DNA of 64,000 nucleotides from Dehalococcoidia bacterium (GCA_965247895.1 OZ252046.1:3005282-3069281), one strand, 5' to 3'; shown: positions 5,699 to 47,200, counted from the first letter of the stretch. Notes: generated by a model not told the origin, from the letters alone. Program-made: numbers and translations.

Positions 5699-6659
5699 GC
5701 AGCGAGCGCCACCAGCTCGGCGGCGCCAAGTCCGACGCCGCCGACGCGAAGCTGCTCGCCGACCTCGTGCGCACCGACCGCCACAACCACCGGCCGGTCG
5801 CCGGCGACAGCGACGAGGCCGCCGCGGTGCGCATCCTCGCCCGCGCCACCAGCAGCTGATCTGGGACCGCGTCCGGCAGACCAATCGCCTGCGCAGCGCC
5901 CTCAGGGAGTACTTTCCCGCTGCCCTGCAGGCCTTCCCCAACCTCGCCCACGGCGACGCCCTCGGCGTGCTGGCCACGGCGCCCGGCCCGCGCGAGGCGG
6001 CGCGGCTGAGCAGCACCCAGCTCCGCGCTGCGCTCCGCCGCGGCGGCCGCAGGCGCGGCAGCGAACAGCGCGCCGCCCAGGTGCGCGAGGCACTGCGCTC
6101 CCCGCAGCTCGGGGCGCCGGCGGTGGTGAACCGGGCGTTCGCCGCGAGCACTCGCGCCAGCGTCGGGCAGATCAGCGAGATCAACCGCCAGCTCAAGGAG
6201 CTCGAGGCCGCGCTGGCAGCACATTTTGAGCAGCACCCGGACGCCGCGCTCTACCGCTCCATGCCCGGACTCGGTGTCGTGCTCGGCGCCCGGGTGCTCG
6301 GCGAGTTCGGGGACGACCCCGAACGCTACGAGTCGGCGAAGTCCCGCAGGAACTACGCCGGCACCTCGCCGCTGACCGTAGCATCGGGGCGCAAACGCAG
6401 CGTGCGCGCCCGCTTCGTGCGCAACCGCCGGCTCGCCGACGCCGTGGACCGCTGGGCGCTCTGCTCGCTGCAGGCGAGCCCCGGCTGCCACGACTTCTAC
6501 CAGCGGCGGCGCGCTGCGGGCGACCTTCACCACCAGGCCCTGCGCGCCCTCGGCAACCGCCTCGTCGGCTACCTCCACGGCTGCCTCAGGACACGCCGCC
6601 CCTACGACGAGGCCACCGCCTGGGCGCACCGCCACGACCGCGAGCAGCTCGCCGCTTGA
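5699..6659 (+). pseudogene. IS110-family transposase remnant, 5'-truncated and frameshifted
   Basis: It starts mid-domain (GAKSDAADAKLLADLVRTDRH...) directly after the CRTAC1 stop. A 1-nt frameshift lies at about 5845-5852: the expected ARAHQQLIWDRVRQTNRL reads ARATSS*. The C-terminal Transposase_20-like part is intact (YRSMPGLGVVLGARVLGEFGD). Confidence 0.8.
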
Positions 6660-6678
6660 CCAGTTAGCACCATGGGGT

Positions 6679-6745
6679 GTCTCTCCTGCCTCTCGCGCGG
6701 GGAGGGGGGGTCGGAACCGCCCTCCGGGGTTCGTTGCGCCCTCGC
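6679..6745. repeat. GGGAGGGG hairpin plus a CCCTCCGGGGTTC motif, members of the repeat families seen at 3235-3930
   Basis: TCTCTCCTGCCTCTCGCGCGGGGAGGGGGGG is followed by ACCGCCCTCCGGGGTTCG. Compare 3853-3870. Confidence 0.6.
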
Positions 6746-6842
6746 TGCTTTCGGGGGAGGCGCTGCCCCGCAGCCGAAACTCGATTACGATGCGCAGCGG
6801 AGGCCGCGAGCCTGCTCCCCACGCCCGAGGAGGTCCCTGCCC

Positions 6843-9482
6843 ATGAGCGAGTCGCTGGCGCTTCTGCACGAGCAGGGTCAGAGCACCTGGCTCGATTTCA
6901 TCAGCCGCGGCTTCCTCGATTCCGGCGCGCTGCAGCGCCTGATCGATGACGCCTGGGTCTCCGGCCTGACGTCGAACCCGACCATCTTCGGGAAGGCGAT
7001 CGCCGACTCCTCGGACTACGACGACGAGCTGCGCGCGCTCGCCGACGCCGGAGTGAGCGACCCCTACGACGCCTTCGTGCGCCTCGCCGGCGCCGACCTG
7101 CGGCGCGCCGCCGACGCGCTGCGTCCGATCTACGAGGCGGGCGGCGGCGAGGACGGCTACGTCTCCTTCGAACTGCCGCCGGGAGTCGAGCACGACTCGC
7201 AGCGCTCGATTGCCGAGGCGCGCCGCCTCGTCGAGGCGGTGGGGCGGCCCAACGTGATGATCAAGGTGCCCGGCACCCCGAACGCGCCCGAGACCGTCGA
7301 GCGCCTGATCGGCGAGGGCGTCAACGTCAACATCACCCTGCTCTTCGACATCGCCGTCTACGAGGGCGTCGCGCGCGCCTACGTCGCCGGCCTCGAACGC
7401 GCTCTCGAGGCCGGACGCGACCTCTCGGCGATCGCCTCGGTCGCCTCGTTCTTCGTCTCGCGCGTCGATACGCAGGTGGACGGGCGGCTGCCGGACGACT
7501 CGCCGCTGCGCGGCCGCGCCGGCGTCGCCAACGCGCGCGCCGCCTACGCGCGTTTCGCCGAGGTCTTCTCCGGCGCGGCCTGGGACGGCCTCGCCGCCTC
7601 GGGCGCGCGCGTCCAGCGCCCGCTCTGGGCCTCGACCGGCACGAAGAACGCCGCCTACTCCGACGTGCTCTACGTCGACAATCTCGTCGCGCCGCACACG
7701 GTGAACACGCTGCCCGAGCCGACGCTCAACGCCTTCGCCGAGCACGGCGACGCCTCGCACGCGATCACGCGCGACGATGAAGCCGAGGCCGAGGCGGCGC
7801 TCGCCGCCCTGGCCGATGCGGGCGTGGACCTCGAGGCGGTGACGGACCAACTGCTCATCGACGGTCTCGACGCCTTCGAGGCGGACTTCCTGGCGCTGCT
7901 GCGCTGCATCGACGAGGCGCTGACCGCGATCCGCTCCGGCAGCGCCCGCAGCGAGGGCCGCCTCGGCCCGATCGAGGCCGCCGCCGGCGAGGCGCTCGAC
8001 CGGCTCGCGCGCGAGGATGTCGCCGGCCGCCTCCAGGCGGGCGACCACACGCTGTGGGCGGACGACCCGGCCGGGGTCAGCAACCGTCTCGGCTGGCTGA
8101 CGGCGCCCGACGACTTCGCCGGCCGCGTCGAGGAGATCGAGGCGTTCGCCGTCGAGGCCGTCGGCGGCATCGACGACGTCGTGCTGCTCGGGATGGGCGG
8201 CTCCAGCCTCGTGGCGGAGGTGATCGCGAGCGCGCACGGCAGTGCGTCCGGCTACCCGGCGCTCAGCGTCCTCGACACGACCGACCCGGCGGAGATCCGC
8301 GCCCTCGACGCGAGTCTCGACCTCTCGCGCACGCTCTTCGTGGTCGCCAGCAAGTCGGGCACGACGGTGGAGACGCGTTCGCAGCTCGACTACTTCTGGT
8401 CGCGCCTGCCGGACGGCGCGCACTTCGCGGCGATCACCGACCCGGGCACGCCGCTCGCCGAACTCGGCGAGGAACGAGGCTTCCGGCACGTCTTCCTGAA
8501 CCCGCCGGAGATCGGCGGGCGCTACTCGGCTCTCTCGTACTTCGGCCTCGTGCCCGCCGCGCTGCTGGGCGTCGGTCTTCAGGGCCTGCTCGCGCCCGCG
8601 GTGGAGATGCAGCGTTCCTGCGGCGCCTGCGCGCCGCCCGCCGACAACCCCGGCGTGCGGCTGGGCGCCGTGCTCGGCGCGGCGGCCGCCGCCGACCACG
8701 ACAAGCTCACGCTCGTTCTGCCGCCGCCGCTCGCCGCCCTCGGGAGCTGGGTCGAGCAGCTGATCGCGGAGTCCACCGGCAAGGACGGGCGCGGCATCGT
8801 GCCCGTCGAGGGCGAGCCGCTCGGCCCGCCCGAGGTCTACGGCGACGACCGGCTGTTCGTCGCCTACGGCGACCACGAGGGCCTCGCGGCGCTCGAAGGC
8901 GCGGGCCACCCGGTCGTGCGCCTGCCGGTGGAGGACGCCGAGCGGCTCGGCGCCGAGTTCTACCGCTGGGAGCTCGCGACCGCCGTGGCCGGCTGCCTGC
9001 TCGGCGTCCAGCCATTCGATGAGCCCAACGTGCAGCAGGCGAAGGACGCGACCGCACGCATCCTCGGCAGCAGCGAGCGCGCCGAGGCGCCCTCGACAGC
9101 GAGCGCCGCCGAGCTGCTCGCGGGCGTGCAGCCGGGCGACTACATCGCACTGCAGGCGTTCCTGCCTCGCAGCGAGGCCAACATCGAGGCGCTGCAGGCC
9201 GCGCGCGTGCGCCTCCGCGACCGCTACCGCGTCGCCGCCACCGCGGGCTTTGGCCCGCGCTTCCTGCACTCGACCGGGCAACTGCACAAGGGCGGCCCCG
9301 ACAGCGCGATCTGCATCCAGATCGTGCGCGACGAGGACGACGACCTCGCGATTCCCGGCCGGCCCGCCGGCTTCGGCGAGTTGCAGCGGGCGCAGGCGCT
9401 CGGCGACCTCGAATCGCTGCGCGCGCTCGGCCGCCGCGTCGCGCGCGTGACGCCCGCGGAACTGGCGGAGCTGGGCGCGTAA
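6843..9482 (+). CDS. tal-pgi: Bifunctional transaldolase / glucose-6-phosphate isomerase
   Basis: ATG at 6843 follows GAGGAGG. The N-terminal half is transaldolase-like (GQSTWLDFISRG...GLTSNPTIF...MIKVPGT). The C-terminal half is PGI-like (VLLGMGGSSL...VVASKSGTTVET...GGRYSALS). Confidence 0.9.
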   Translation: MSESLALLHEQGQSTWLDFISRGFLDSGALQRLIDDAWVSGLTSNPTIFGKAIADSSDYDDELRALADAGVSDPYDAFVRLAGADLRRAADALRPIYEAGGGEDGYVSFELPPGVEHDSQRSIAEARRLVEAVGRPNVMIKVPGTPNAPETVERLIGEGVNVNITLLFDIAVYEGVARAYVAGLERALEAGRDLSAIASVASFFVSRVDTQVDGRLPDDSPLRGRAGVANARAAYARFAEVFSGAAWDGLAASGARVQRPLWASTGTKNAAYSDVLYVDNLVAPHTVNTLPEPTLNAFAEHGDASHAITRDDEAEAEAALAALADAGVDLEAVTDQLLIDGLDAFEADFLALLRCIDEALTAIRSGSARSEGRLGPIEAAAGEALDRLAREDVAGRLQAGDHTLWADDPAGVSNRLGWLTAPDDFAGRVEEIEAFAVEAVGGIDDVVLLGMGGSSLVAEVIASAHGSASGYPALSVLDTTDPAEIRALDASLDLSRTLFVVASKSGTTVETRSQLDYFWSRLPDGAHFAAITDPGTPLAELGEERGFRHVFLNPPEIGGRYSALSYFGLVPAALLGVGLQGLLAPAVEMQRSCGACAPPADNPGVRLGAVLGAAAAADHDKLTLVLPPPLAALGSWVEQLIAESTGKDGRGIVPVEGEPLGPPEVYGDDRLFVAYGDHEGLAALEGAGHPVVRLPVEDAERLGAEFYRWELATAVAGCLLGVQPFDEPNVQQAKDATARILGSSERAEAPSTASAAELLAGVQPGDYIALQAFLPRSEANIEALQAARVRLRDRYRVAATAGFGPRFLHSTGQLHKGGPDSAICIQIVRDEDDDLAIPGRPAGFGELQRAQALGDLESLRALGRRVARVTPAELAELGA

Positions 9483-9490
9483 GGATCGGG
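9421..9490. repeat. 70-bp direct repeat, copy 1 (native 3' end of tal-pgi, stop TAA)
   Basis: Identical to 9787..9856 except for 1 nt (A at 9481 versus G at 9847). Confidence 0.95.
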
Positions 9491-9540
9491 GTGGGGGTGG
9501 CATCAGCGCGACCACGTGCTGCCGCCGTACACTGGCGACG

Positions 9541-9786
9541 ATGGTAGCGTTCGATACGGCCAAGGTAGAGCGGGCGCTGCGCGGGCCGCTCGGCGACGCG
9601 GCGGCGCGTGAGGTGACGGAAGCGCTCGCCGAAGGCTTGACACGCACATCGTCACGAAGGCCGACCTCAGAGCGCCCCCGCCCCGATTGGGGTGGCGAGG
9701 TGCTACTCCTCACGCTCGCGTCGAGTGTCATCATCCTCGGCGCGATCGCGATCGCGACGGCCATGATCCTGAACGAACTGCCGTGA
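9541..9786 (+). CDS. Small hypothetical protein with a C-terminal TM helix, inside the 366-bp insertion
   Basis: 81-aa ORF with a hydrophobic tail (VLLLTLASSVIILGAIAIATAMIL). Its stop abuts repeat copy 2. It has no obvious SD. Coding status is uncertain. Confidence 0.35.
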   Translation: MVAFDTAKVERALRGPLGDAAAREVTEALAEGLTRTSSRRPTSERPRPDWGGEVLLLTLASSVIILGAIAIATAMILNELP

Positions 9787-33932: not shown

Positions 33933-34685
33933 GTGCCCTCACTCGGATCGCACCTCGCCAGCGCCTACGGGCTGGCCGACCGCCTCGGCCACCCGTTCAT
34001 CGACGCCGATCGCGGGGCCTACTACATGGGCTCGACGGCGCCGGACATCCGCGTGCTGCTGCGGGTGGACCGCCGCCTCACGCACTTCTTCGAGCTCGAC
34101 GAGTTCGCGAAGCAGGACTCGGTGGCGCGCATGTTCGAGGAGCACCCGGACCTGCAGGACCTCGCCGGCCTCAACGAGAGCACGCGCGCCTTCGTCGCCG
34201 GCTACGTCACGCACCTGCTGATGGACGAGCACTACATCCAGAGCGTCTACCGCCGCTTCTTCGGCGAGCGCTCGTCGCTCGGCGGCGATCTGCGCGCCAA
34301 CATCCTCGACCGCGCGCTGCAGTACGAGATGAACCGTCGCGAGCTGGAGGACGACGCCGCGCTCGCGGAGATTCGCACCGCCATCGACGCGACCGAGGCG
34401 GCGATCGCGGTCGGCTTCATCGAGTCGCAGCTGTGGCCGGAATGGCGCGACTTCACGCGCGGGATCACCTACCAGCGCCCGGACTGGGACCGCTTTCCTC
34501 GGGTGATGCAGATCCACCTGCGGCGCGGCGGCTTCAGCGACGAGGAGATCGAGCGCGTCGCGGAGAACCCGGGCGGGCTGATCCAGGAATCGCTCTCACA
34601 CGTCAGTGAGGACGAGGTCGCACGCTACCTCGAGGAGGCGACCGAGCTGGCCGCCGAGCGCCTCCGCGAATATCTGCCCCGCTGA
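33933..34685 (+). CDS. Hypothetical protein, possibly a zinc-dependent phospholipase C-like / metal hydrolase fold
   Basis: The GTG follows GGAGG and sits 1 nt after the hisG stop. Its stop overlaps the hisD ATG. The N-terminus GSHLA....GSTAPDI resembles that family only loosely. Confidence 0.6.
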   Translation: MPSLGSHLASAYGLADRLGHPFIDADRGAYYMGSTAPDIRVLLRVDRRLTHFFELDEFAKQDSVARMFEEHPDLQDLAGLNESTRAFVAGYVTHLLMDEHYIQSVYRRFFGERSSLGGDLRANILDRALQYEMNRRELEDDAALAEIRTAIDATEAAIAVGFIESQLWPEWRDFTRGITYQRPDWDRFPRVMQIHLRRGGFSDEEIERVAENPGGLIQESLSHVSEDEVARYLEEATELAAERLREYLPR

Positions 34686-36028: not shown

Positions 36029-37188
36029 TGGCCGACACGCAGAGTTTCGACCTCGAGGCGGCGCAGCGTCCGCCGCTGCGTTCGCTGCGCGGCTACGAGC
36101 CGATCGAACCCCCGGAGCAGGTCGCCGCCCGCTACGGCGTCGCGCCGGAGACGATCGTCAAGCTCGACGGCAACGAGAACCCGTACGGCCCTGCGCCGCG
36201 CGCCCTCGAGGCGCTGGCGGGCGGCTACGCGGCGCACCGCTACCCGGACCCGGAGCAGCGGCGCCTCCGCGAGGCCCTCGCGGCGCGCCACGGCGTGCCG
36301 CCCGAGTGCATCGTCGCGGGCGCGGGCGCGGACGAGATCATCGACCTCGTGTTCCGCATCTTCATCGACGCGGGCGACCGCGTCGTGATCGCCTCGCCGA
36401 CGTTCGGGATGTACTCCTTCGGCGCGGAAGTCGCGGGCGCGCAGCTCGTCGACGTGCCGAGGCGCGCCGACTGGTCGGCGGACCTCGACGCGCTGGCCGC
36501 GGCCTGCGAGGGCGCAAAGGCAGTGTTCCTGCCCTCGCCCAACAACCCGACGGGCGGACTGCTGCCCCCCGACGCCGCGGAGCGCCTGCGCGCGAGCGGC
36601 GCGATCGTCGTCATTGACGAGGCCTACGTGGAGTTCGCGAGCGGCCACGAGGGCGTGCACAGCGGACCGCCGACCCTCGTGGGCGACGCGGCGAGGGAGG
36701 GCGGTGCGCCGCTGATCGTGCTGCGCACGTTCAGCAAGTGGGCCGGGCTCGCAGGGCTGCGGGTCGGCTACGGCGTCATGCCGGCCTCGGTGGCCGCGCT
36801 GCTGATGGCCTGCAAGCAGCCGTACGGCGTCAGCACCGCCGCCGAGGCGGCCGCGCTCGCCTCCCTCGAAGACACGCTGCTGCTCGATGAGCGCGCCTGC
36901 GAGATCGCCGGGGAGCGCGATCGGCTGGCGGGCGAGTTGCGGGCGGGCGGCTGGCTGGAGCCGGTGCCCTCGCAGGCGAACTTCCTGCTCTGCCGGCTCG
37001 CCTTCGGCAGCGGCGCGGCGCTGCGCGAGGCGCTCGCGCGTCGAGGCGTCTTCGTGCGCTTCTTCGGCCACGAGCGCCTGCGCGACCACGTCCGCATCTC
37101 GATCGGCACGCACGAGGACAGCGAGCGCCTGCTCGCGGCGCTCGCGGAAGCGCGGGCTGAGGTGGAAGGCGCGGGCGGGGGGCGGTAA
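36028..37188 (+). CDS. hisC: Histidinol-phosphate aminotransferase
   Basis: It contains KLDGNENPYGP and RTFSKWAGLAGLRVGY (PLP lysine). The ATG overlaps the hisD TGA. Confidence 0.9.
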   Translation: MADTQSFDLEAAQRPPLRSLRGYEPIEPPEQVAARYGVAPETIVKLDGNENPYGPAPRALEALAGGYAAHRYPDPEQRRLREALAARHGVPPECIVAGAGADEIIDLVFRIFIDAGDRVVIASPTFGMYSFGAEVAGAQLVDVPRRADWSADLDALAAACEGAKAVFLPSPNNPTGGLLPPDAAERLRASGAIVVIDEAYVEFASGHEGVHSGPPTLVGDAAREGGAPLIVLRTFSKWAGLAGLRVGYGVMPASVAALLMACKQPYGVSTAAEAAALASLEDTLLLDERACEIAGERDRLAGELRAGGWLEPVPSQANFLLCRLAFGSGAALREALARRGVFVRFFGHERLRDHVRISIGTHEDSERLLAALAEARAEVEGAGGGR

Positions 37189-37206
37189 CAGCGTCAGTCA
37201 ATTTGC

Positions 37207-37247
37207 GTCAACTTGGTTTGTTGGAGTGTCAGTAGACACAAGTTGAC
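37207..37247. promoter_or_regulatory. 9-bp inverted repeat GTCAACTTG, 23-nt spacer, CAAGTTGAC in the AT-richer hisC-hisB gap
   Basis: Read directly. It is a candidate operator and/or internal promoter region. Confidence 0.35.
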
Positions 37248-37292
37248 CCAAGATCGTACTTTGGAAGGGCGCACCGGGAGGGCGGCCCCACC

Positions 37293-38048
37293 GTGGAGAT
37301 CAAGAGCGAGACCTATTTGCGCGTGCGCGAGGCGTACGAGTCGGGCGAGCTCGACGTGCTCGGCGGGCAGACACGGCTCGCCGAGGAACTCGGCGTGACA
37401 CGCCAGGCGATCAACACCAACCTCAAGCGCGTCAAGCGCGAAGTCGCCAACGGCGAGCGCCGCGCCACCCTCGACCGTATCACTGCCGAGACCCGCATCC
37501 ACGTCGAACTCGACATCGACGGGACCGGCAACTCCGAGATCTCCACCGGGGTCGGCTTCTACGACCACATGCTGGAGGCGTTCGCGAAGCACGGCCGCTT
37601 CGACCTCGAGCTGCGCTGCGAGGGCGACCTGCACGTCGACGAGCACCACACGATGGAGGACTGCGCGCTGGCGCTCGGCGCCGCCTTCGACGAGGCGCTC
37701 GGCGACCGCAGCGGCATCGTGCGCATGGGCGACTCGACGGTGCCGCTCGACGAGGCGCTGATCCAAGCAGTCGTCGATTGCTCCGGCCGGCCCTACGCGG
37801 CGATCGACTTCGACTGGAACGGCGAGCGCATCGGGCAGGCCCCGACGGAGATGATCTCGCACGCCCTGCAATCGTTTTCGCAGGGCGCGCGCGTGGCGCT
37901 GCACGTGCGCCAGCTCGCCGGCGCCAACGACCACCACATCGCCGAGGCCGCCTTCAAGGCGCTCGGGCGCGCCCTCGATGCCGCGACGAGCCGCGATCCG
38001 CGGATCGCAGGCGAGACGCCGAGCACCAAGGGCACGCTGACAGCGTGA
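37293..38048 (+). CDS. hisB: Imidazoleglycerol-phosphate dehydratase with a ~50-aa N-terminal HTH-like extension
   Basis: The IGPD core runs from RRATLDRITAETRI and contains GFYDHMLEAF, DEHHTMED and NDHHIAEA. The extension contains QTRLAEELGVTRQAINTNLKR. The GTG lies 10 nt after GGGAGGG. Confidence 0.85.
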   Translation: MEIKSETYLRVREAYESGELDVLGGQTRLAEELGVTRQAINTNLKRVKREVANGERRATLDRITAETRIHVELDIDGTGNSEISTGVGFYDHMLEAFAKHGRFDLELRCEGDLHVDEHHTMEDCALALGAAFDEALGDRSGIVRMGDSTVPLDEALIQAVVDCSGRPYAAIDFDWNGERIGQAPTEMISHALQSFSQGARVALHVRQLAGANDHHIAEAAFKALGRALDAATSRDPRIAGETPSTKGTLTA

Positions 38049-38055
38049 CGGCCGC

Positions 38056-38940
38056 ATGAGCGCGGACCCGGCCGCGCCGCGCGGTGTCGTCCACTGTGCC
38101 GACGGCGTGGCGGTCGCGCGCACCCTCGAGGACGAGAGTGTCGACCTCGTCTACCTCGACCCGCCGTTCAACACGGGCAGGCGGCAGACGCGCGAGCAGC
38201 TGCGCACGCGGCGTGTTCCCGAAGGCAGCGAGGACGGCGCGGGCGACCGCACCGGCTTCGGCGGGCGGCGCTACGAGACGGAGCGGCTGGGCAGCCGCTC
38301 CTTCGAGGACGCCTACGACGACTACCTCGGCTTCCTCGAGCCGTTCCTCGTCGAGGCGCAGCGGCTGCTTGCGCCCTCGGGCAGCCTCTACCTGCACCTC
38401 GACTACCGCGAGGTGCACTACGCCAAGGTGCTGGCGGACCGGATCTTCGGGCGTGTCAACTTCGTCAACGAGATCATCTGGGCCTACGACTACGGCGCGC
38501 GTCCGAAGCGGCGCTGGCCGGCGAAGCACGACAACATCCTCTTCTACGCGAAGGACGCCGCGCGCAACCGCTTCAACGCCGAGGACATCGAGCGCATCCC
38601 CTACATGGCGCCGGGCCTCGCCGGCCCGGAGAAGGCGGCGCGCGGCAAGCTGCCGACCGACACCTGGTGGCACACGATCGTCAGCCCGACGGGCAAGGAG
38701 AAGCTCGGCTACCCGACGCAGAAGCCGATCGGTGTCCTCGAGCGGATCGTGCGCGCGTCCTCGCCGCCGGGCGGGCTGGTGTGCGACTTCGTCGCGGGCA
38801 GCGGCACCACGGGCGAGGCGGCGCTGCGCCACGGCCGCCGCTTCGTCCTCGCCGACGACTCGCCGGAGGCCTTCGAGGTGATGATGCGCCGTTTCGCCGC
38901 CTGCGAGGGCGTCGCGTTCGCCGAAGGGATCGGCGGCTGA
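38056..38940 (+). CDS. Site-specific DNA methyltransferase (N6_N4_Mtase family, beta class; N6A or N4C)
   Basis: Motif IV (LVYLDPPFNTG) comes before motif I (VCDFVAGSGTTGEAA). Confidence 0.9.
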   Translation: MSADPAAPRGVVHCADGVAVARTLEDESVDLVYLDPPFNTGRRQTREQLRTRRVPEGSEDGAGDRTGFGGRRYETERLGSRSFEDAYDDYLGFLEPFLVEAQRLLAPSGSLYLHLDYREVHYAKVLADRIFGRVNFVNEIIWAYDYGARPKRRWPAKHDNILFYAKDAARNRFNAEDIERIPYMAPGLAGPEKAARGKLPTDTWWHTIVSPTGKEKLGYPTQKPIGVLERIVRASSPPGGLVCDFVAGSGTTGEAALRHGRRFVLADDSPEAFEVMMRRFAACEGVAFAEGIGG

Positions 38941-39728
38941 TGCAGGACTGCTATGCCGGAGATGTAGGAGACTTCGGCAAGTATGGCTTGCTCCGCGCGC
39001 TGTGTGGCGACGACCTCCGCCTAGGTGTGCTCTGGTACCGATTTGAGTCGTGCGACGGTGGTAAGGACGTTGGCTACCTCGAACTGTCACGCAGCGCTGC
39101 TTTCGAGCGTTGTAACCCCCAACTCTTTCGAGCGATGCGGACGATCGTGCAAGGAGGTACGCGAACTATTGCGGCCGTCGAGGCGAGCGACGCCCTACCA
39201 GACGGCAAGGCGTGCTTCTCTGAGGAGTTGAACATAACGTCAGACGATTCATGGGGAGAGAGGCAGCGACAACGCAGCAAGTGGCTCGCTGATGGCTTCG
39301 AGAGAGTGGCCGGCACCCAAGTCGTCTTCGCTGATCCGAACACGGGTCTCGAGATCCCAAGCGTCGGGCCTGTGGCCGTGGGTGGACGAGGCAGCAATGA
39401 CGGCAGGAAGTACGCCTACTATCACGACCTCCAACCACATTGGGAGGCGGGACAGAGCATCGTCGTCTACCACCACTCCTCCCGGAGCGTTAAGGGAGAG
39501 TCGGTGGAGATCCAAGTGGGAAAGCGCATAGAGGCGCTACGTCGGCACTTCCGGCTGCCGCGACACCAGAAGGTCATGGCCCTGCGCTACCACCGCGGTA
39601 CATCGCGCACATACTTGGTGGTGCCCGCTCCTGAACATGCCGCGCGGCTCGTCGAGCGCTGCGGAGCGTTTGTTGAGTCCCTGTGGGGTCAAGGGACGAA
39701 GCCGCACTTCACGCTGTTGGAAGGCTGA
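38940..39728 (+). CDS. Unrecognised 262-aa protein, translationally coupled to the methyltransferase
   Basis: Its ATG overlaps the MTase TGA (TGATG). Hand counts on three 60-nt lines give about 60% GC against about 70% in the flanks. It contains YAGDVGDFGKYGLLRAL, VVFADPNTGLE and IVVYHHSSR. I recognise no family. Confidence 0.65.
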   Translation: MQDCYAGDVGDFGKYGLLRALCGDDLRLGVLWYRFESCDGGKDVGYLELSRSAAFERCNPQLFRAMRTIVQGGTRTIAAVEASDALPDGKACFSEELNITSDDSWGERQRQRSKWLADGFERVAGTQVVFADPNTGLEIPSVGPVAVGGRGSNDGRKYAYYHDLQPHWEAGQSIVVYHHSSRSVKGESVEIQVGKRIEALRRHFRLPRHQKVMALRYHRGTSRTYLVVPAPEHAARLVERCGAFVESLWGQGTKPHFTLLEG

Positions 39729-40558
39729 CCACCATCTCCGCTGATACCACCACCGACATCCTCGCGTTTGCCCTCGAACTGGCGGACGCGGCCGACGCGG
39801 TCGCGATGCGCGACTACCGGACGGCGCACGCCGTCGAGCGCAAGGCGGACGGGACGTTCGTGACGCCCGCCGACCGCGAGATCGAGGCGCTGCTGCGCGA
39901 ACGCATCGCCGAGCGCTACCCGGCCCACGCCATCCTCGGCGAGGAGCAGGGCGGCGGGCAGGCCCCCGAAGGCGAGTCGCGCTGGATCCTCGACCCGATC
40001 GACGGGACACACAACTACATGCGCGGCATCCCGGTCTGGGGGACGTTGATCGCCTGCGAGCGCGGCGGAAGCGTCGAGGTCGGCGTCGTCTCCGCGCCCG
40101 CGCTCGGGACGCGCTGGTGGGCGGGCCGCGGCCTCGGCGCCTACCGGGGTGCGACGGGCCGCGCGGCGGGCGGCCGCGCCGCCGGGACGGGCGAGCGCAT
40201 CCGTGTCTCCGATGCCGAGACGATCGCCGAGGCGCAGATCGTGTACGGGGAGATGGTCGCGACCCTCGATCGCTGGCCCGGCGCGCGGGCGCTGCTCGGG
40301 GACGCCTGGCGCGTGCGCGGCTTTGGCGACTTCTGGGGCTTCACCCTCGTCGCCGAGGGCGCCGCCGACGTGATGCTGGACGGTGCCAACCTCCACCCCT
40401 GGGACATCGCCGCCCTGATCCCGATCGTCGAGGAGGCCGGCGGCCGCCTCACGGATGCCGAGGGCGGCCCGCCGGAGGGCGCGGGGCCTCGCATCGCCTC
40501 GAACGGACGTCTCCTCGCGGAGGTGTTGAGGCGTCTCGCTGACCCCGGAGCGACATAG
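39683..40558 (+). CDS. hisN: Histidinol-phosphatase, inositol monophosphatase family (HisN-type)
   Basis: It contains LGEEQGG and WILDPIDGTHNYMRGIPVWGTLIA. The only in-frame start is GTG 39683, which overlaps the preceding ORF by 46 nt. Confidence 0.8.
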   Translation: MGSRDEAALHAVGRLTTISADTTTDILAFALELADAADAVAMRDYRTAHAVERKADGTFVTPADREIEALLRERIAERYPAHAILGEEQGGGQAPEGESRWILDPIDGTHNYMRGIPVWGTLIACERGGSVEVGVVSAPALGTRWWAGRGLGAYRGATGRAAGGRAAGTGERIRVSDAETIAEAQIVYGEMVATLDRWPGARALLGDAWRVRGFGDFWGFTLVAEGAADVMLDGANLHPWDIAALIPIVEEAGGRLTDAEGGPPEGAGPRIASNGRLLAEVLRRLADPGAT

Positions 40559-40698
40559 CCGGTCCGCGTCCGGGCAGCCCCCCGATACCTCGTCGCAACG
40601 TCTACAATCACCGTCGTCGCCGCCCCGGGGGAAGCCGACACCCGATCGGGCGATTCCGAGGCTCCCCGCCATGCGGTAGCAAGCGGAGGAGGCACGCC

Positions 40699-42090
40699 AT
40701 GCTCGTGAACGTGCTCTCGCGCCGCCGTCCCGCCCTGATCGTGGCGGTCTCCGGCCTCGTGGCGCTCTCCCTCTTCCTCGTCCGCCCGGTTGTCGCGCAC
40801 GCGGCAGGGGTCGAGGACGAGACGCAGTTCATCCTCAACACCTTCGCGTTCCTCGTCTGGGGCGCGCTCGTGATGTGGATGTGCGCCGGGTTCACGATGC
40901 TCGAGGCGGGCTCGGTGCGTACCAAGAACGCGTCGATGATCTGCCTGAAGAACATCGGCCTCTACTCGATTGCCGGACTCGCCTACTTCTTCATCGGCTA
41001 CAACCTGATGTACGGCGAGATCATCGGCGGCGTGATCGGCACGCCCGACCTCCTCTACGGGCCGACGGCTGCCGAGATTGACCTCGTGTCCGGAGACGGG
41101 GACGCCGACGCCGTGATCGGCAACGGCTACTCGACGATGTCCGACTGGTTCTTCCAGATGGTCTTTGTCGCCACGGCCGCCTCGATCGTCTCGGGCGCGC
41201 TCGCCGAGCGCGTCAAGATGTGGTCGTTCTTCCTGTTCACGCTGGTGCTGACCGCGATCATCTACCCGATCGTCGGAGCCTGGACGTGGGGCGGCGGATG
41301 GCTGCACGAGCTGGGGTTCCAGGACTTCGCCGGCTCCACCATCGTGCACGGCGTCGGCGGCTGGGCGGCGCTCGCAGGCGTGCTCGTGGTCGGCCCGAGG
41401 CTGGGCAAGTTCCGCCGCGACGGCACGCCGAGGCCCACGCCGCCCTCGAACATCCTGATCGTGACGCTTGGCGTCTTCATCCTCTGGTTCGGCTGGTTCG
41501 GGTTCAACGGCGGATCGCAGCTGGCGCTGGGCAGCGCCGCCGACGTGACGGCGATGAGCCACGTGCTGGTCAACACGAACCTCGCGGCGTCCGCCGGCGT
41601 GATGGCGGCCCTCGTTCTCTCGCGGTACATCCTCGGGCGTACGGACCTGTTCGCGGGCCTGAACGGAGCGATCGCGGGGCTGGTCTCGATCACCGCCGGG
41701 CCTGACATCACCGAGCACTACTGGGCGGTGATCATCGGCGCCATCGGGGGGATCATCTGCACCGCCGGACTCAAGCTGCTGGAACGACTGCAGCTCGACG
41801 ACGTGGTCGGCGCGGTGCCGGCCCACCTCTTCGCCGGCATCTGGGGCACCCTCGCCGCCTCGATCGTGGCGGGGGCCGACATCGGGGTGCAGTTACTCGG
41901 CGTGGTCTCGGTCGGCGTGTTCGTCTTCGGGGTCTCGTGGGTGCTGTGGCAGGTGCTGGCGCGGACGCTGAGCGTCCGCGTGGAGCCGGCCGTCGAGCGC
42001 CTCGGTCAGGACGCCGGCGAGCTGGGCATCGAGGCCTACCCTGAGTTCGTGCTCATGCCCGAGGAGTTCTTCGAGGACGACGAGGACTGA
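40699..42090 (+). CDS. amt: Ammonium transporter
   Basis: Amt/MEP signature segments (AGFTMLEAG, FAGSTIVHGVGGWAAL, WFGWFGFNGGS). The ATG follows GGAGGAGG. Confidence 0.95.
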   Translation: MLVNVLSRRRPALIVAVSGLVALSLFLVRPVVAHAAGVEDETQFILNTFAFLVWGALVMWMCAGFTMLEAGSVRTKNASMICLKNIGLYSIAGLAYFFIGYNLMYGEIIGGVIGTPDLLYGPTAAEIDLVSGDGDADAVIGNGYSTMSDWFFQMVFVATAASIVSGALAERVKMWSFFLFTLVLTAIIYPIVGAWTWGGGWLHELGFQDFAGSTIVHGVGGWAALAGVLVVGPRLGKFRRDGTPRPTPPSNILIVTLGVFILWFGWFGFNGGSQLALGSAADVTAMSHVLVNTNLAASAGVMAALVLSRYILGRTDLFAGLNGAIAGLVSITAGPDITEHYWAVIIGAIGGIICTAGLKLLERLQLDDVVGAVPAHLFAGIWGTLAASIVAGADIGVQLLGVVSVGVFVFGVSWVLWQVLARTLSVRVEPAVERLGQDAGELGIEAYPEFVLMPEEFFEDDED

Positions 42091-42107: not shown

Positions 42108-44180
42108 TCAGTCGTGCTCCAGGTAGTCGTGGCTCACCCAGCCCTCGACGCCGTCCTCGGTGCGGACGTGGACCCAAAGGGCCGCCTCCGCCACGCCGAT
42201 CGACGTGTGGAACGGCCGTGAGTCGTCACGTGGCGTATCGGGTTCGGCCAGGATGAGGCGCTCGCCGTCAGGGAGGCACTCCCTGGTTGGGTTGTCCGTC
42301 CCCGGCTCCTCGCGGAGCGCGAGGCAGCCGCCGGTTCCGGCTACGCGGAGCGCGATCTCGTCGTCGAACGGCGGGAGTTGGATCTTCGGTGGGAGCAGGA
42401 TCTGCCGGTGTTCAACGCCTCCGCGGAACTCACGGATGGTGAACCAGCGCTCGCGGTGTGTGTCACCCCACCATGACTCGCCCCATGAAACCTCCCCGGG
42501 GCCGCTCCAGCGTTCCTCGTCGACGTCGTACACACCGGGGCCATAGGCCATGTAGCGGCCGCCGCCCGTCGGGGCGGCTGCAGGGCCTCGCTCGGTGGGC
42601 GCCCCACTCGGCGGGCCACCTGGTCGGGAAGCCGGAAGGGAGATCAGGTCGGGCGACGGAGGTATGCGCAAGATCGCGTATCCATCGTGTACGCCGACGA
42701 CGAGCCCGTCACCTGTAGACAGCCAGTTGTGAGGCCACGTTCCCGAAGAGACCCGGTGCGCCGATTGCGCGCGGAGTATCGGGGTGCAGGTGTCGGCCGC
42801 AGCGATCACGACGGTGGACCATGGAGGCCCCCCACTGGCGTCACCGGGGTGATAACCGCGGTCCTCCCGGTAGATGCTGCCGTCGTCGCGGACCACGAGA
42901 CCTGTCCAGTGGAATGCGCCGCCAGTTACCTGGGCTACGAACCGTCCGTCCGGGGACCGTAGCCCTTCGCATGCTGGACCGGGCGCCCGGATCCCATCCC
43001 AGGTGAAGTAGAGGACATCCGAATATGGGTAGGTGGTCCTACCCGCATGGGTGACGCTCAGGCGAATTCGGGGAGGGGCCCACCCCTGGCCTCCGAGGAG
43101 GAGCCGCTGGGGCCCTTCGTCCCCGACTTGAGCCTCGAATAGCACTGTTGGGCGCGCGGACTCCACGGGAACGAGGTACACCCTGTCTTTCGTGCCGAGC
43201 GCGATGGTCTGGCCGTCCGGTGAGAAGCGTACTAGTGGATCGGCGCCCTCGGTGTCGAGGGAGAAGCGGGCTACTTCCTTCATGTCTCGGTTCACGACGG
43301 TGAACCGACCCGTGTAGTAGGGCCAGGCCGAATCGAGATCCTCGAAGAGGAGGTGCTGCTCGGATGCCTTCAGCAACCGGATGCCGCCGTAGCTCCGTGG
43401 CCAACGCCAGGATCGCCCCGTCTTTCGATCCAGTAGTAGGCGCGACCCCTCAAGATCGTATGAAGTGAGCCAACCGCCTGGGCGACGGTAGTAGATATGT
43501 CCCGGGTCGGCACCGGGCACACGGTATCCGTCTATGAGCCCGGTCCCCGGATCCGTCACGAAGATGCCGTGCGTCCAGTCGATGTCCTCGCCCGTTTCGA
43601 AGGTGTGGTGCTCGAATGCGTCGGGTGCCGGCTCGATGAGCGCGACGCCTGGATGGGGCGTTGGCGACGGGGTGGCAGTCGCCGTTGGGGTGGGTTCCGG
43701 CGTGGGCGACGGGGTGGCAGTCGCTGTCGGGGTGGGTTCCGGCGTGGGCGACGGGGTGGCAGTCGCCGTCGGTGTGGCTTCCGGGGTGGGCGACGGGGTC
43801 GCTGCGGATGCCGGCTCAGGTGTCGGAGTCGCAGTCTGAGCAGGCGTCGAGGTGGCACGAGGCGGAGCCGCCGTGGGTACGGGAGTGGGTCTCGGCGTCG
43901 GCGTCGGGGACGGCAGGGGGGTGGGGGTGGCGGTGGCCGTCGGCGCCGGCTCGGGTGTCGAGGTGGCGGGTGGGGTCGCCACGACCGTCGGCGGGGACGT
44001 TGCGGTCGGCGTCGCTGGACGGGCGGGCGTGCTGGCAGCGGCCCTCGGCGACGAACTCGGAGGGGCGGTCGGCTCGCTCGCGTCCTCGCACGCGGCGGCG
44101 GCGATCAGCATCGCAAGCGCGGTCGCCGCGATGACGAGGCGTGCGACGGACGTGACAGCGGCTCGGGAGTCGAGGCCCAT
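42108..44180 (-). CDS. Surface lipoprotein: Pro/Thr-rich linker, beta-propeller-like region, C-terminal SH3b-like domain
   Basis: I chose the ATG at 44180 ([31 protein letters not shown] lipobox). It has TolB/WD40-like FSPDGQTIA and RSPDGRFVA segments. The C-terminus reads [19 protein letters not shown]. Confidence 0.75.
43663..43800. repeat. In-frame 42-bp tandem repeat, about 3.3 copies (encodes [14 protein letters not shown])
   Basis: Units start at 43663, 43705 and 43747. Confidence 0.9.
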
Positions 44181-44274
44181 GCTGACACCATAGGTCCCGG
44201 GTCGGCCCCGACGCGCCCACCTCCGCCACAGCGCGGGACCAGGCCGGGCGGGCTTCAGGCGACGGCGACACCGT

Positions 44275-47200
44275 TCACTGCCGTCTGTTGGGCCCTCGCC
44301 GGCGGCGAACCTGCAGGCCACTGGCGTAGCGCCGCCAGCGCCGCGTGCGGCGCGGGGAGGCGGCCCTGCGCGCGGGAGGCGGAGCTCTCAGCAGCTCGCG
44401 GGCGCGGTGGACGGCAGCGGCCGCGAGGGCGACCGCGGCGATCGCGAGGAGCACGATCCAGGCCGTGCGGTTCGCGTCCGCCGCATCGTCGAGCTGCCTG
44501 CGCAGTGACTCGACACTCGAGGGCGCCTCGCGCGTTGCGGGACCGACCACCTCGCGTGCCGCTGCCGATGTCGCGACCGGCCCGTCCGGCGCGACGGGCT
44601 CCGCCGTGGCGGACGCCTCGATGCGTCCGGGCGAGGGGTGCTCGGAGATGGTGGTCTCCGTCAGCCGGCCTGCGGCGTCGAAGCGGCGCTGCAGCGAGCG
44701 CCCGGGCGCAGGGGCGCTCAGCGGCGGCTGGTCCACGCTGTCGTCGCTGCCGTAGGACAGCGCGTCGATGATCGCGCCGTCGGCCGTGGCGAGCGCGACG
44801 CGGTCCCCGCTGTTGCCGAGGCCGTTGAACAGCCCGCGGCCGTGGCGCATGGCGATCGCGTCGCCGATCTCCGCCTGCGGTCCCGCGACGACGAGCGCGC
44901 CGGCGGGTGGCAGCGTGAGGGCAGGCAGCGCGATCCGCCCGTGGTTGTCGGCGAGGAACAGCCCGTCGAGCGAGATCGCGGCTACACCGACGTTGCTCAC
45001 CTCGATCCACTCGTATTCGGCGTCGGCGCCGCTCTCCGGCGGGTCGGGCAGCAGTTCCGTAATGCGCAGCAGGATCGCCGAGGCGCTACGGACGTCGTAG
45101 GGCTCCAGCGTTGCGGTCGCGACCGCGACCGCAGCCGCTGCTTCTGGCGAGGGTGTTGCCCCGGGCGTGGGGGAAGGCGCTTCGGAGGTCGCCTCAACCG
45201 GCGCGGGCGTCGCGGCGGGCTGCGGCGCGGCGGCCGAGGCGAAGGACACGTCGTCGGCGCGCAGGACCGCGGGCGCCTCGCCGGCGGGGCGCAGCATGAT
45301 CCGCAGCTGTGCGCTGCGGGCGTCGTCGGGTGCGCGGATCACCCCGCTGGAGACGCTGGCGAAGGCGTCGGCGACACCAACGAGCTCCTCGGAGTCGGCG
45401 GTGGAGAGCTGAGCCCCGCTCGCGTCGACCGAGGCGTACCAGGCGACGCGGATGCGGGCGAGGTCCGCGTTGGAGCCGGGCCAGAGCCGCCCGTGCGCCT
45501 CGTACCAGCGGCCGCCCTCGACGGCGAAGGACTGGTGCAGCCAGGCGGTCGAGCCGCCCGCCGAGGTGAGCGCGATGGCCCGTGAGCCGCCCTCGGTCGT
45601 GACGAGGGCGGATCCGGCGTGGGCGCGCCAGCCGTAGGGCGTGTCGCCGGGGAGCTCGAAGTCGCCGTTGGTCAGGGACGCGAAGAACGAAGGCGCCGCC
45701 TCGGGAGTCGGCGAGGGCGCGACGGCCGGCGCCTCCGCCGGGGCGGGCGGCGGCGCGGTACGCGCGAAGGCGATCTCATCGGCGTGCAGAAGCGCCGGGG
45801 CCTCGCCCGCGGGTTGCAGCATGATCCGCAGTTCCGCACTGCGGGCGTCCTCTGGCGCGCGGATCGCGCCCGTGGTGACGGAGGCGAAGCCGTCGCTGAC
45901 GCCGCTGAGCTCGTCGGAGTCCGTCGTGGAGAGCTGCGCTCCGCTCGTGTCCTCCGAGGCGTACCAGGCGATCCGGATGCGAGCGAGGCCCGCGTTGAGG
46001 CCGGCCCGGAGCCGCCCGCCGGCCTCGTACCAGCGGCCACCCTCGACGGCGAACGACTGGTGCAGCCAGGCCGTCGCGCGGCCTCCGGAGACGAGAGCGG
46101 CAGCCCGCGAGCCGCCCTCCGTCGCGACGAGAGCGGCGCCGGCGTGGGCGCGCCAGCCGTAGGGCGCCTCGCCGGGAAGCTCGAAGTCGCCGTTGGTGAG
46201 CGCGGCGAAGAAGGTTGGCGCCGCCTCGGGCGCGGCCGAGGGCGCGCCTGGAGTCTGGAGCGGTGTCGTGGGCGCTGGCGGCGGGGCTGTGCGCGCGAAC
46301 GACACGTCGTCGGCGTGGAGGACGGCGGGAGCCTCACCCGCCGGGCGCAGCATGATCCGCAGCTGCGCGCTGCGGGCGTCGTCCGGGGCCCGGATCCTGC
46401 CGGTCGAGACGGCAGCGAGGAGATCGCTGCTGCCGCTGAGTTCGTCGGAGTCCGCAGTCGCGAGCTGGGGCCCGCTTCCGTCCTCCGAGGCGTACCAGGC
46501 GACGCGAATGCGCGCGAGGCCTGCAGTGGAGCCCGGCCGGAGCCGCCCGGCAGCCTCGTACCAGCGGCCGCCCTCGACGGCGAACGACTGGTGCAACCAG
46601 GCGGTTGCGCTGCCCTGCGAGGTGAGCGCGAGAAGCCGCGAGCCGCCCTCGGGCGTGACGAGGGCGTGCCCGGCATGGGCGCGCCAGCCGTAGGGCGTGT
46701 CGCCGGGCAGTTCGAAGTCGCCGTTGGTCAGCGAGGCGAAGAAGGAACGCGCCGCCTCGGGTGTGGGCGAAGGCGCCTCCGACGCTGTGTCCGTTGCCGC
46801 CGCGGGAATCGGAGCGGTGCGCGCGAAGGACAGATCGTCCGCGTGGAGCAGCGCGGAAGCCCCGCTCGCAGGACGCAACATGATGCGCAGCTGCGCGCTC
46901 CGTGCGCCGTCCGGCGCGCGGATCCTGCCGGTTGAGACGGCCAGGAACGAGTCGCCGGCGCCGGTCAGTTCCTCGGAGTCGGCCGTGGACAGTTGAGCCC
47001 CGCTCGCGTCGACCGAGGCGTACCAGGCGACGCGGATGCGGGCGAGGTCCGCGTTCGAGCCCGGCCGCAGCCGCCCGGCAGCCTCGTACCAGCGGCCCCC
47101 CTCGACAGCGAAGGACTGGTACAGCCAGGCGGTCGAACCGCCCCGCGCGGTAAGTGCGAGAAGCCGCGAGCCGCCCTCGGACGTGACGAGGGCGTCCGCG

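Follow-up and report, generated by a model that had tools for sequence, protein, structure and literature searches.

A DNA methyltransferase gene and a 262-aa open reading frame (ORF), here called the partner, lie side by side within the histidine operon of a Dehalococcoidia bacterium (Chloroflexota), in the order hisB, methyltransferase gene, partner, hisN. The window, that is, the whole stretch of DNA analyzed, has 64,000 nt (GCA_965247895.1 OZ252046.1:3005282-3069281). The initial annotation of this DNA took the two genes together for a candidate restriction-modification (R-M) or other defence module with a novel effector, horizontally inserted into the operon. Our analysis instead points to two separate things: a conserved orphan methyltransferase and an unrelated, stand-alone accessory gene, most of which forms a hypervariable allelic cassette. 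In the explanation that we propose, partner alleles of at least five deeply diverged classes are exchanged by homologous recombination, with the methyltransferase gene and the first 70-115 nt of the partner as left arm and hisN as right arm. The partner would be kept as long-lived, recombining allele classes by balancing or negative frequency-dependent selection, and would be engaged with a fast-evolving antagonist such as a phage, a mobile element or a competitor. The anatomical claims (orphan methyltransferase, cassette, family size, absence of methyltransferase linkage) are jointly held to be very probable. The whole account, in which the accessory gene varies under balancing selection in a genetic conflict, is evenly poised between right and wrong, and a role of the partner in defence or conflict, judged separately, falls somewhat short of an even chance.

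The gene order hisD-hisC-hisB-methyltransferase-partner-hisN-amt was found in at least 16 related Dehalococcoidia genomes, 15 of them species-level genomes and the other L088, and in the window (17 his-locus genomes). HisD divided these genomes into two sub-clades, with identities of 91-100% within and 76-85% between them (76-100% overall). Genomes with 94-96% DNA identity to the window in the flanks could be aligned with it across the methyltransferase gene and the first ~100 nt of the partner, up to a break near 39040. DNA homology resumed at 39747, just past the partner stop, and between these points there was either nothing alignable or islands of 70-75% identity. DNA identity to near relatives was 91-94% until +70..+116 nt from the partner ATG and then broke off; in pairwise tests the left edge of the cassette fell at +70..+116 nt and the right edge at +781..+808 nt from the ATG, giving a cassette of ~700 bp. 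In the window, the hypervariable cassette (39041..39746, + strand; GC content 0.61) covers partner aa 35-262 up to the 5′ end of hisN, while the conserved 5′ end of the partner (38940..39040, +; aa 1-33, MQDxYAGDxGDFGKYGLLRAL...LRLGVLWY) holds the best-conserved motif of the family and belongs to the left arm for allele exchange. The same pattern was seen in four metagenome assemblies, where contigs at least 88% similar covered the flanks at a depth of tens to hundreds and 39042-39711 at a depth of 0-20.

Five partner allele classes were distinguished at the his locus: class A (window, L003 and a degraded copy in L013), class B (L004, L005, L006, L007 and L011), class C (L088, L014, L020 and L024), class D (L017, L025 and L028) and class E (L029 and L041). 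Protein identity between classes was 43-64%, against 86-99% for the methyltransferase. For example, L004 and L088 share 99% identity in HisD, 99% in the methyltransferase and 91% in HisN but only 52% in the partner, and L014 and L029 share 97% in HisD and 96% in the methyltransferase but 44% in the partner. The two sub-clades share classes B and C, at ~66-75% identity, and in the two cross-clade pairs tested (L004-L007 and L088-L014) the DNA was contiguous through flanks and cassette. The allele classes are discordant with the genome tree, and in the family tree the his-locus alleles branch in among sequences from other contexts, those of Longimicrobiales included.

No empty site (hisB-methyltransferase-hisN without the partner) was present among the 17 his-locus genomes. 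The copy of the window's allele in L013 has lost 217 nt through a frameshifting deletion and is a pseudogene, indicating that the partner is dispensable. Within allele classes, the ratio of nonsynonymous to synonymous substitution rates (dN/dS) was 0.14-0.26, and the partner is therefore under purifying selection. In every reliable comparison the dS of the partner was at least as high as in the flanking genes, and in most pairs it was 2-4 times higher, which may reflect deeper coalescence. The arrangement resembles variable defence or accessory cassettes at conserved hotspots of the chromosome and the allelic 'mod' genes of Type III systems in its conserved flanks, sharp edges and divergent alleles, in exchange by homologous recombination through conserved arms, and in the variability of the site 3′ of the same methyltransferase in sister lineages. 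It differs in that the alleles are all homologs of one family rather than different systems, that the site lies inside a biosynthetic operon with overlapping frames on both sides, and that no known defence model matches.

The layout of the window agrees with what had first been described: two coupled genes follow the hisB stop codon at 38048 and precede hisN. The methyltransferase gene (38056..38940, +; 294 aa) is followed by the 262-aa partner (38940..39728, +), a single alpha/beta domain with a weakly methyltransferase-like fold and 392 homologs, whose ATG shares one base with the methyltransferase TGA: GGCTGATGCAG (TGATG). The 3′ end of the partner overlaps the only possible hisN start, GTG 39683, which lies 46 nt inside the partner ORF; upstream of the conserved N-terminal segment of hisN there is no alternative start codon. 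The hisN residues ahead of that segment differ according to partner allele. The partner is translationally coupled on both sides, by TGATG upstream and by the 46-nt overlap downstream. Promoter and terminator scans of the locus found none, but such scans are uninformative for Chloroflexota. The lower GC content seen in the initial annotation was also borne out: the partner has a GC content of 0.61 and 0.70 at third codon positions (GC3), compared with 0.68-0.75 and 0.90-0.97 for the flanking his genes, the methyltransferase gene and amt. Partner GC3 was 0.70-0.84 in all 16 his-locus genomes, whatever the allele class, and that of the flanks 0.86-0.98. Because it is low in all 16 genomes, the low partner GC is a standing property of the gene and not the trace of one recent transfer.

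The methyltransferase matched PF01555 (N6_N4_Mtase) at 3.7e-42 (145 bits; cutoff 26.7) and the PADLOC model MTase_II (PDLC03300) at 1.3e-127, and its nearest solved relative was M.RsrI (1.8e-29). It carries DPPF at aa 35-38 and the S-adenosylmethionine (SAM) motif DFVAGSGTTG near aa 245-254, and belongs to the beta class (N6A/N4C) because motif IV precedes motif I. The class and motif order first assigned were thus confirmed, while the spelling FxGxG given for the SAM motif has to be corrected to FxxGxG. Across 16 his-locus genomes the enzyme is 86-99% identical, with a GC3 of 0.94-0.98. Between the two sub-clades its identity exceeds that of HisD, and against the window it exceeds those of HisC and HisN. 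Its homologs grade smoothly from 95% to 69% identity over more than 120 clusters, and the few clusters with source names come from Chloroflexi/Chloroflexota metagenome-assembled genomes (MAGs). Since the arrangement is lineage-wide, the composition native and the identity 86-99%, the methyltransferase is not a recent insert, and the proposed horizontal insertion of the pair into the his operon does not hold as a recent event. Lineage-wide conservation with native composition applies to the methyltransferase, while the partner itself is compositionally atypical. Near his genes the partner also occurs without the methyltransferase: in L018 and L027 it is convergent with hisB-hisC-hisD, and in L021 it adjoins hisN.

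The methyltransferase in turn occurs without the partner at L089-L093 and L098-L100. Orthologs of 74-80% identity were found in another conserved context (enoyl-CoA hydratase, acyl-CoA synthetase, Fe-S oxidoreductase, methyltransferase, acyl-CoA dehydrogenase), and no partner-family gene was present at these loci. A 70%-identity ortholog (L091) has an amidohydrolase gene on one side and a protein kinase gene on the other, the latter convergent and next after the methyltransferase. The site 3′ of the methyltransferase is variable in otherwise syntenic sister-lineage genomes (about 5870-8800; L089, L090, L098-L100). At this site L090 has nothing, the next gene being that of acyl-CoA dehydrogenase; L098 has ORFs of 85 and 141 aa; and L089 has the same ORFs plus a CAP12-PCTIR TIR-domain protein. 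In L100 a second PF01555 methyltransferase gene overlaps a 205-aa ORF, and these two may form a true R-M pair. Because the site is variable in sister lineages too, the adjacency of methyltransferase and partner is probably lineage-specific and positional. A SocA_Panacea gene was seen upstream of the methyltransferase in two sister-lineage loci. In one genome, OZ252025.1, the partner (L026) and a methyltransferase ortholog (L089) are both present at separate loci, the single example seen.

These comparisons show vertical inheritance of the methyltransferase along with the his genes throughout the lineage and suggest that it is a resident orphan (solitary) enzyme. Within the sister-lineage loci searched, no nuclease adjoins it. 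Its marking of the host chromosome would serve housekeeping or epigenetic ends and not a restriction enzyme. Like the orphan methyltransferases of the CcrM/Dam type, it is conserved lineage-wide, above HisD between sub-clades, with no adjoining nuclease in sister lineages, and it is a beta-class PF01555 enzyme, as are CcrM and M.RsrI. Unlike them, it sits within the histidine operon, and it is only a distant relative of CcrM (64.8 bits with the NCBIfam CcrM model, cutoff 830). A literature search gave no specific report on orphan methyltransferases in Chloroflexota; this enzyme is a candidate CcrM-like epigenetic regulator in that phylum.

Searches of Pfam, NCBIfam, PADLOC, PHROGs and PDB sequences gave no match to the partner, even at E<=1-10 (in PADLOC, zero families at E<=1). 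The same was true of 33 family members searched against the profile libraries, PF04378 being absent at E<=10, and regular-expression scans of the partner found no PD-(D/E)xK, HNH, GIY-YIG or PLD motif. The absence of a recognized family and of a PD-(D/E)xK signature, as first described, therefore stands after these searches and scans, and the three motifs then singled out are present at aa 5, 128 (VVFADPNTGLE) and 174 (IVVYHHSSR). The family is nevertheless large. A word-indexed search gave 392 homologs, nearly all 245-270 aa long; no Pfam domain was present in any of them. An exhaustive hidden Markov model (HMM) search of 1.84 billion cluster representatives gave 4317 clusters at 50% identity with E<=1e-3 and 1394 with E<=1e-30. 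Among 185,579 species genomes a pattern scan picked out 475 relatives, mostly in Dehalococcoidia MAGs; the other hosts were Longimicrobiales, Alphaproteobacteria (including Azospirillum), Acidobacteriota, Planctomycetota, Clostridiaceae, Bacteroidales, Methanoperedens, Methanosarcinales and Hydrothermarchaeales. The family tree disagrees with taxonomy and joins one copy from Methanosarcinales and one from Bacteroidales as sister branches. In 103 diverse representatives G10, D11, K14, W32, R112, W115, P133 and Y177 were invariant, and D8, D132, D134, N135, G136, K157, H179, R223, W249 and H256 nearly so; in place of the family consensus DPDNG, the window partner has DPNTG. True C-terminal fusions were found to Hypoth_Ymh (2e-17; two Acidimicrobiaceae) and DUF433 (4.6e-14). 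By contrast, in L017 (8001-9602) and L021 (8001-9749) the partner ORF runs without a stop into hisN (533- and 582-aa frames), and in L022 into a BTAD domain. These read-throughs are probably incidental, as stops are scarce in high-GC DNA, or, for L017 and L021, due to an assembly frameshift, and they were not counted as fusion (Rosetta-stone) evidence. As far as these comparisons go, the partner looks like a member of a large, horizontally mobile family that lacks any library model, and like a stand-alone accessory gene.

The genomic contexts of the partner outside his were taken from 65 loci, with 241 flanking ORFs searched against Pfam and 111 immediate neighbours against PADLOC. No homolog of the window's methyltransferase was found anywhere in the 65 loci (phmmer), and the only DNA methyltransferase among the 111 immediate neighbours was one Type I enzyme. 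No DNA-methyltransferase family was among the 25 commonest Pfam families on either side of the partner, and clustering of neighbour ORFs revealed no gene conserved beside the partner across the family. The expectation that partner homologs would be linked to methyltransferases thus failed. The flanking ORFs belong mostly to housekeeping families. The PADLOC matches among the immediate neighbours were HerA (2), mad2/mad8 (2), PDC-M41B/M30B (3), a Type I methyltransferase (1) and DpdB (1). Two inspected contexts were islands with PIN, MazE, HicB, RES, Fic, transposase and ResIII/RE_endonuc genes. The initial annotation proposed to test for residence in defence islands: some relatives lie among toxin-antitoxin, transposase and restriction genes, and most neighbours are of housekeeping kinds.

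In about a third of the other loci the partner lies no more than 100 nt behind or ahead of a co-oriented and often highly conserved gene, and it may be expressed from host operons. Eight Dehalococcoidia share the order pgk-gpmI-tpiA-partner-miaA-dapF-aminotransferase-hflX. In Acidobacteriota L087 (4979-6792) the order is purA, dCTP-deaminase-like gene, partner, and the partner overlaps by 4 nt the stop of the dCTP-deaminase-like gene (341 aa, PF22769). In four further Dehalococcoidia loci (L038, L043, L062 and L075; about 5200-9600), a ribonucleotide reductase with TSCPD, which carries an intein in 2 of the 4, is followed by a ~100-aa ORF, the partner and a DUF5131 protein with a weak match to TIGR04471 (radical SAM mobile pair protein A; 4.7e-08). 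The three PADLOC PDC-M41B/M30B matches would be these DUF5131 proteins. TcmP ('three-Cys-motif partner') is a protein that pairs with DUF5131 (PADLOC candidate families PDC-M41/M30). The partner resembles TcmP/DUF5131 pairs in standing directly before a DUF5131 protein in these four loci, and differs in that this pairing is confined to one small clade and that the partner matches neither the NCBIfam TcmP model nor a PADLOC model. Sequence kinship with TcmP was rejected, as the NCBIfam model had no match in six family members; the partner HMM also had no significant match among ORFs of the region of Sinorhizobium meliloti pSymA thought to hold TcmP. A plasmid search found three distant homologs of 25-27% identity. 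One, on Ensifer adhaerens plasmid pCTYH.Ch1_3 (L096 5014-7319; 25.6% identity, E 2e-12), has a GIY-YIG nuclease gene on either side, with a gap of 15 nt to the first and an overlap of 4 nt with the second; genes for an SOS-response-associated peptidase and for a DNA methyltransferase are close by. The contigs L084-L086 share an identical homolog and differ by insertion-sequence insertions; these three are closely related strains and were rejected as evidence of gene mobility.

The structure of the window partner was predicted with AlphaFold2 from a 33-sequence alignment. The model (pLDDT 92.9, pTM 0.91) shows one alpha/beta domain, which contains seven strands. A Foldseek search of PDB returned Escherichia coli RlmJ first (E 1.4e-5, probability 1.0, template-modelling score (TM) 0.44), with several other SAM methyltransferases among the weaker matches (E>0.03). 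For a second family member, P0119 (40% identical, pLDDT 93.4), the best matches were TrmM (E 0.011, TM 0.29), N6AMT1 and Dam. No nuclease fold was among the matches of either model, and no viral structure matched at or under E 1e-3. The predictions indicate a Rossmann, methyltransferase-like domain and no known nuclease fold. The predicted fold is consistently but weakly like that of amino-methyltransferases, and a specific kinship with RlmJ is not robust.

RlmJ, the 23S rRNA m6A2030 methyltransferase (PF04378), requires K18 and D164 for activity, and residues of its motifs X, IV and VI form a pocket (PMC3814359). It is likened to the partner, together with TrmM/TrmN6, N6AMT1 and Dam, as the top structural match of the window model. 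By our reading of DSSP against PMC3814359, the two share a Rossmann-like core in which a helical insertion follows the first strand. They also share an N-terminal helix with conserved Asp and Lys and a D-P after the central strand (D15, K18 and D164-P165 in RlmJ). In an overlay made by eye, partner G7-D8-x-G10-D11-F-G-K14-Y15 would fall on RlmJ G11-N12-x-A-D15-V-L-K18-H19, D132-P133 on D164-P165, and Y177 on W195. The N-terminal helix (D11, K14), the loop D132-P133-D/N behind a central strand and the aromatic Y177 of the strand after it would thereby resemble motifs X, IV and VI, with which RlmJ and Dam-type enzymes hold a flipped-out adenine. In contrast to RlmJ, the partner alignment shows no GxGxG or DTHAG SAM motif and no (D/N)PP(Y/F) tetrad such as DPPY, there is no sequence or profile similarity, and the structural match is absent for the second member. 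The partner also appears to have one beta-alpha-beta unit fewer where RlmJ binds the adenosine of SAM, and it is hypervariable and patchy, unlike a ribosomal housekeeping enzyme. The models suggest that the partner derives from an amino-methyltransferase fold. Most likely, as a weak guess, it binds or chemically modifies a nucleic-acid base, and it may not be a conventional methyltransferase.

Four other explanations were weighed. That the two genes form a classical Type II R-M pair, the partner being an endonuclease of new fold that cuts DNA lacking its neighbour's mark, would fit their adjoining, translationally coupled position in 17 of 17 his-locus genomes, the 1.3e-127 match to the PADLOC Type II model, and the loss of the partner with retention of the methyltransferase in L013, the expected order of decay for such a pair. 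Restriction enzymes moreover evolve fast and often have no detectable homologs. But the partner has no nuclease motif, profile or fold match, the methyltransferase orthologs stand alone in sister lineages, and the 65 other partner loci hold no homolog of this methyltransferase, the sole DNA methyltransferase among their immediate neighbours being of Type I. Methyltransferases of 99% identity beside partners only 52% identical were deemed incompatible with a cognate pair, and conservation above HisD between sub-clades is expected of an orphan regulatory methyltransferase, not of an R-M one. Because four of five defining features fail (nuclease identity, co-inheritance in each direction and co-variation), an R-M pair is considered very unlikely. 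Partial support for the supposed defence module remains in the coupling of a real, compositionally atypical gene to the methyltransferase, in the conflict-like replacement of alleles beside near-identical flanks, and in the relatives that lie among toxin-antitoxin, transposase and restriction genes or are fused to Hypoth_Ymh or DUF433. Coupling and constant adjacency in this lineage, along with a methyltransferase-like fold without recognizable SAM motifs, would fit an inactive subunit that partners with or regulates the neighbouring methyltransferase, as METTL14 does METTL3. We regard this as very improbable: the methyltransferase does without the partner in sister lineages, the family does without this methyltransferase in 65 loci, and an obligate subunit would be expected to co-evolve rather than to swap alleles of ~50% identity beside a 99%-identical enzyme or to be lost in L013.

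An active SAM-dependent RNA or DNA methyltransferase of the RlmJ, TrmM or Dam kind, with a housekeeping or strain-specific epigenetic role, would explain why the best Foldseek matches are the N6-amino-methyltransferases RlmJ (E 1.4e-5), TrmM, N6AMT1 and Dam. It would also account for the D-P after the central strand and the invariant Lys and Asp on the N-terminal helix, reminiscent of RlmJ K18, D15 and D164, and for the lineage in which the partner lies near miaA, hflX and other translation-related genes. Allelic diversity could then mean different targets, if the variable region recognizes the target. However, no methyltransferase profile matched even at E<=10, hhalign against RlmJ gave a probability of 0.1, no GxGxG SAM motif is visible, and DPDN/DPNT stands in place of (D/N)PP(Y/F). 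For a housekeeping rRNA enzyme, neither 50% divergence between genomes with 99%-identical neighbours, nor a pseudogene in a close relative (L013), nor such rarity (475 relatives in 185,579 species genomes) would be expected, and this explanation is rated unlikely. Distinctly unlikely in our judgement is a selfish, homing-type element parasitizing conserved operons, with invasion, decay and re-invasion producing the divergent alleles. Such an element would fit the partner's placement within 100 nt of a co-oriented gene in ~1/3 of the other loci (tpiA/miaA, the intein-containing ribonucleotide reductase, purA) and in his here, its GC3 below that of host genes in every genome, the pseudogene in L013, the sister copies in Methanosarcinales and Bacteroidales that are off taxonomy, and the distant plasmid homolog between two GIY-YIG nuclease genes. 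Yet the partner has no nuclease or recombinase domain, none of the 17 his-locus genomes has an empty site, the alleles are under purifying selection, and the family is absent from phage collections. In addition, two classes persist in both sub-clades with DNA contiguous within each class, which looks like maintenance rather than turnover.

Several points weigh against the account that we favour, an orphan methyltransferase beside a variable accessory gene under balancing selection. The link to defence is circumstantial: PADLOC models match only ~9 of 111 immediate neighbours, most of which are housekeeping genes, and no family member was found in phage collections or IMG/VR contigs, so that no antagonist was identified. 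Repeated import or gene conversion could also make the alleles discordant with the genome tree, with no balancing selection involved, and the high dS of the partner may be due partly to weaker codon-bias constraint. As to the biochemistry, the P0119 model did not recover RlmJ, and hhalign of the partner against RlmJ gave a probability of 0.1 both for the single sequence and for a 12-sequence alignment; the RlmJ sequence was checked against PDB 4blu, and the profile of 12 enterobacterial RlmJ sequences is shallow (homologs all at least 82% identical). The correspondence of motifs X, IV and VI is a reading by eye and not a computed alignment, and DPNTG in the window allele may mean altered or lost activity.

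The function of the partner may nonetheless depend on the mark of the methyltransferase. In one version, to which we give only a slim chance, the partner would be a single-protein effector of a new kind, serving immunity or conflict, with a degenerate amino-methyltransferase fold that has kept the base-flipping pocket, lost the SAM site and reads an adenine mark. The mark read would be that of the orphan methyltransferase or an equivalent host mark, and inhibitors or mimics encoded by phages would have diversified the variable body of ~230 aa into long-lived allele classes. If so, a conserved methyltransferase and a variable reader would make up a restriction-like system of self/non-self recognition without a canonical nuclease.

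With the favoured account, what looked like a single module separates into a core, vertically inherited beta-class methyltransferase and a variable gene, and provides a test case for orphan methyltransferases. As a family member the methyltransferase is ordinary, and only its role and place are unusual. The partner family has no description in any of the libraries tested: ~4,300 clusters in bacteria and archaea without a library model, yet with a confident predicted structure and invariant putative active-site residues. The population signal is clean, a ~700-bp cassette in five classes between flanks up to 99% identical, and is read as a sign of genetic conflict. A biosynthetic his operon hosts a long-lived variable accessory gene with overlapping frames on both sides.

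The neighbouring genes were also examined. The left neighbour hisB (imidazoleglycerol-phosphate dehydratase; 37293..38048, +) matched Pfam IGPD at 3.4e-61 over aa 85-228 and NCBIfam HisB at 2.5e-83. It begins with an in-frame fusion of ~55 aa (37293-37455), a Cro/YdaS-like helix-turn-helix (PF15943, 5.6e-07, aa 21-65) that could be a fused regulator; no internal start codon was present near aa 50-56, before the canonical HisB N-terminus. The extension occurs in the near sub-clade (HisB of 252-260 aa, weak or faint YdaS match), and HisB of the far sub-clade aligns only from about residue 55. The right neighbour hisN (histidinol-phosphatase, inositol monophosphatase family; 39683..40558, +) matched PF00459 at 1.4e-46 and TIGR02067 at 2.3e-68 (230 bits, under the model's 275-bit cutoff). 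Farther downstream, L013 (8259, 9496; closest by HisD, 98%) is also without most of the ammonium transporter gene, leaving window 40652-41954 unmatched. A second variable spot of the operon lies between hisC and hisB: the window has only a gap of ~100 nt (37188-37293), and the closest relative (L001/L003 5772-6220) has an inserted DUF4258 and DUF2283 gene pair, which we take to be toxin-antitoxin-like. Between hisG and hisD there is a 250-aa ORF (33933-34685, +), an unassigned gene of the his operon that is conserved at the same position in the inspected relatives (250-251 aa, no precomputed Pfam match), whose only match was a weak one to Zn-dependent phospholipase C (2.4e-05, under the cutoff). 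Beyond the operon, the N-terminal third of a 737-aa ORF (42108-44321, -) consists of Pro/Thr/Ala-rich repeats, with strong GC skew at 43550-44150, and the gene at this position in relatives has a weak or faint SH3_3 match.

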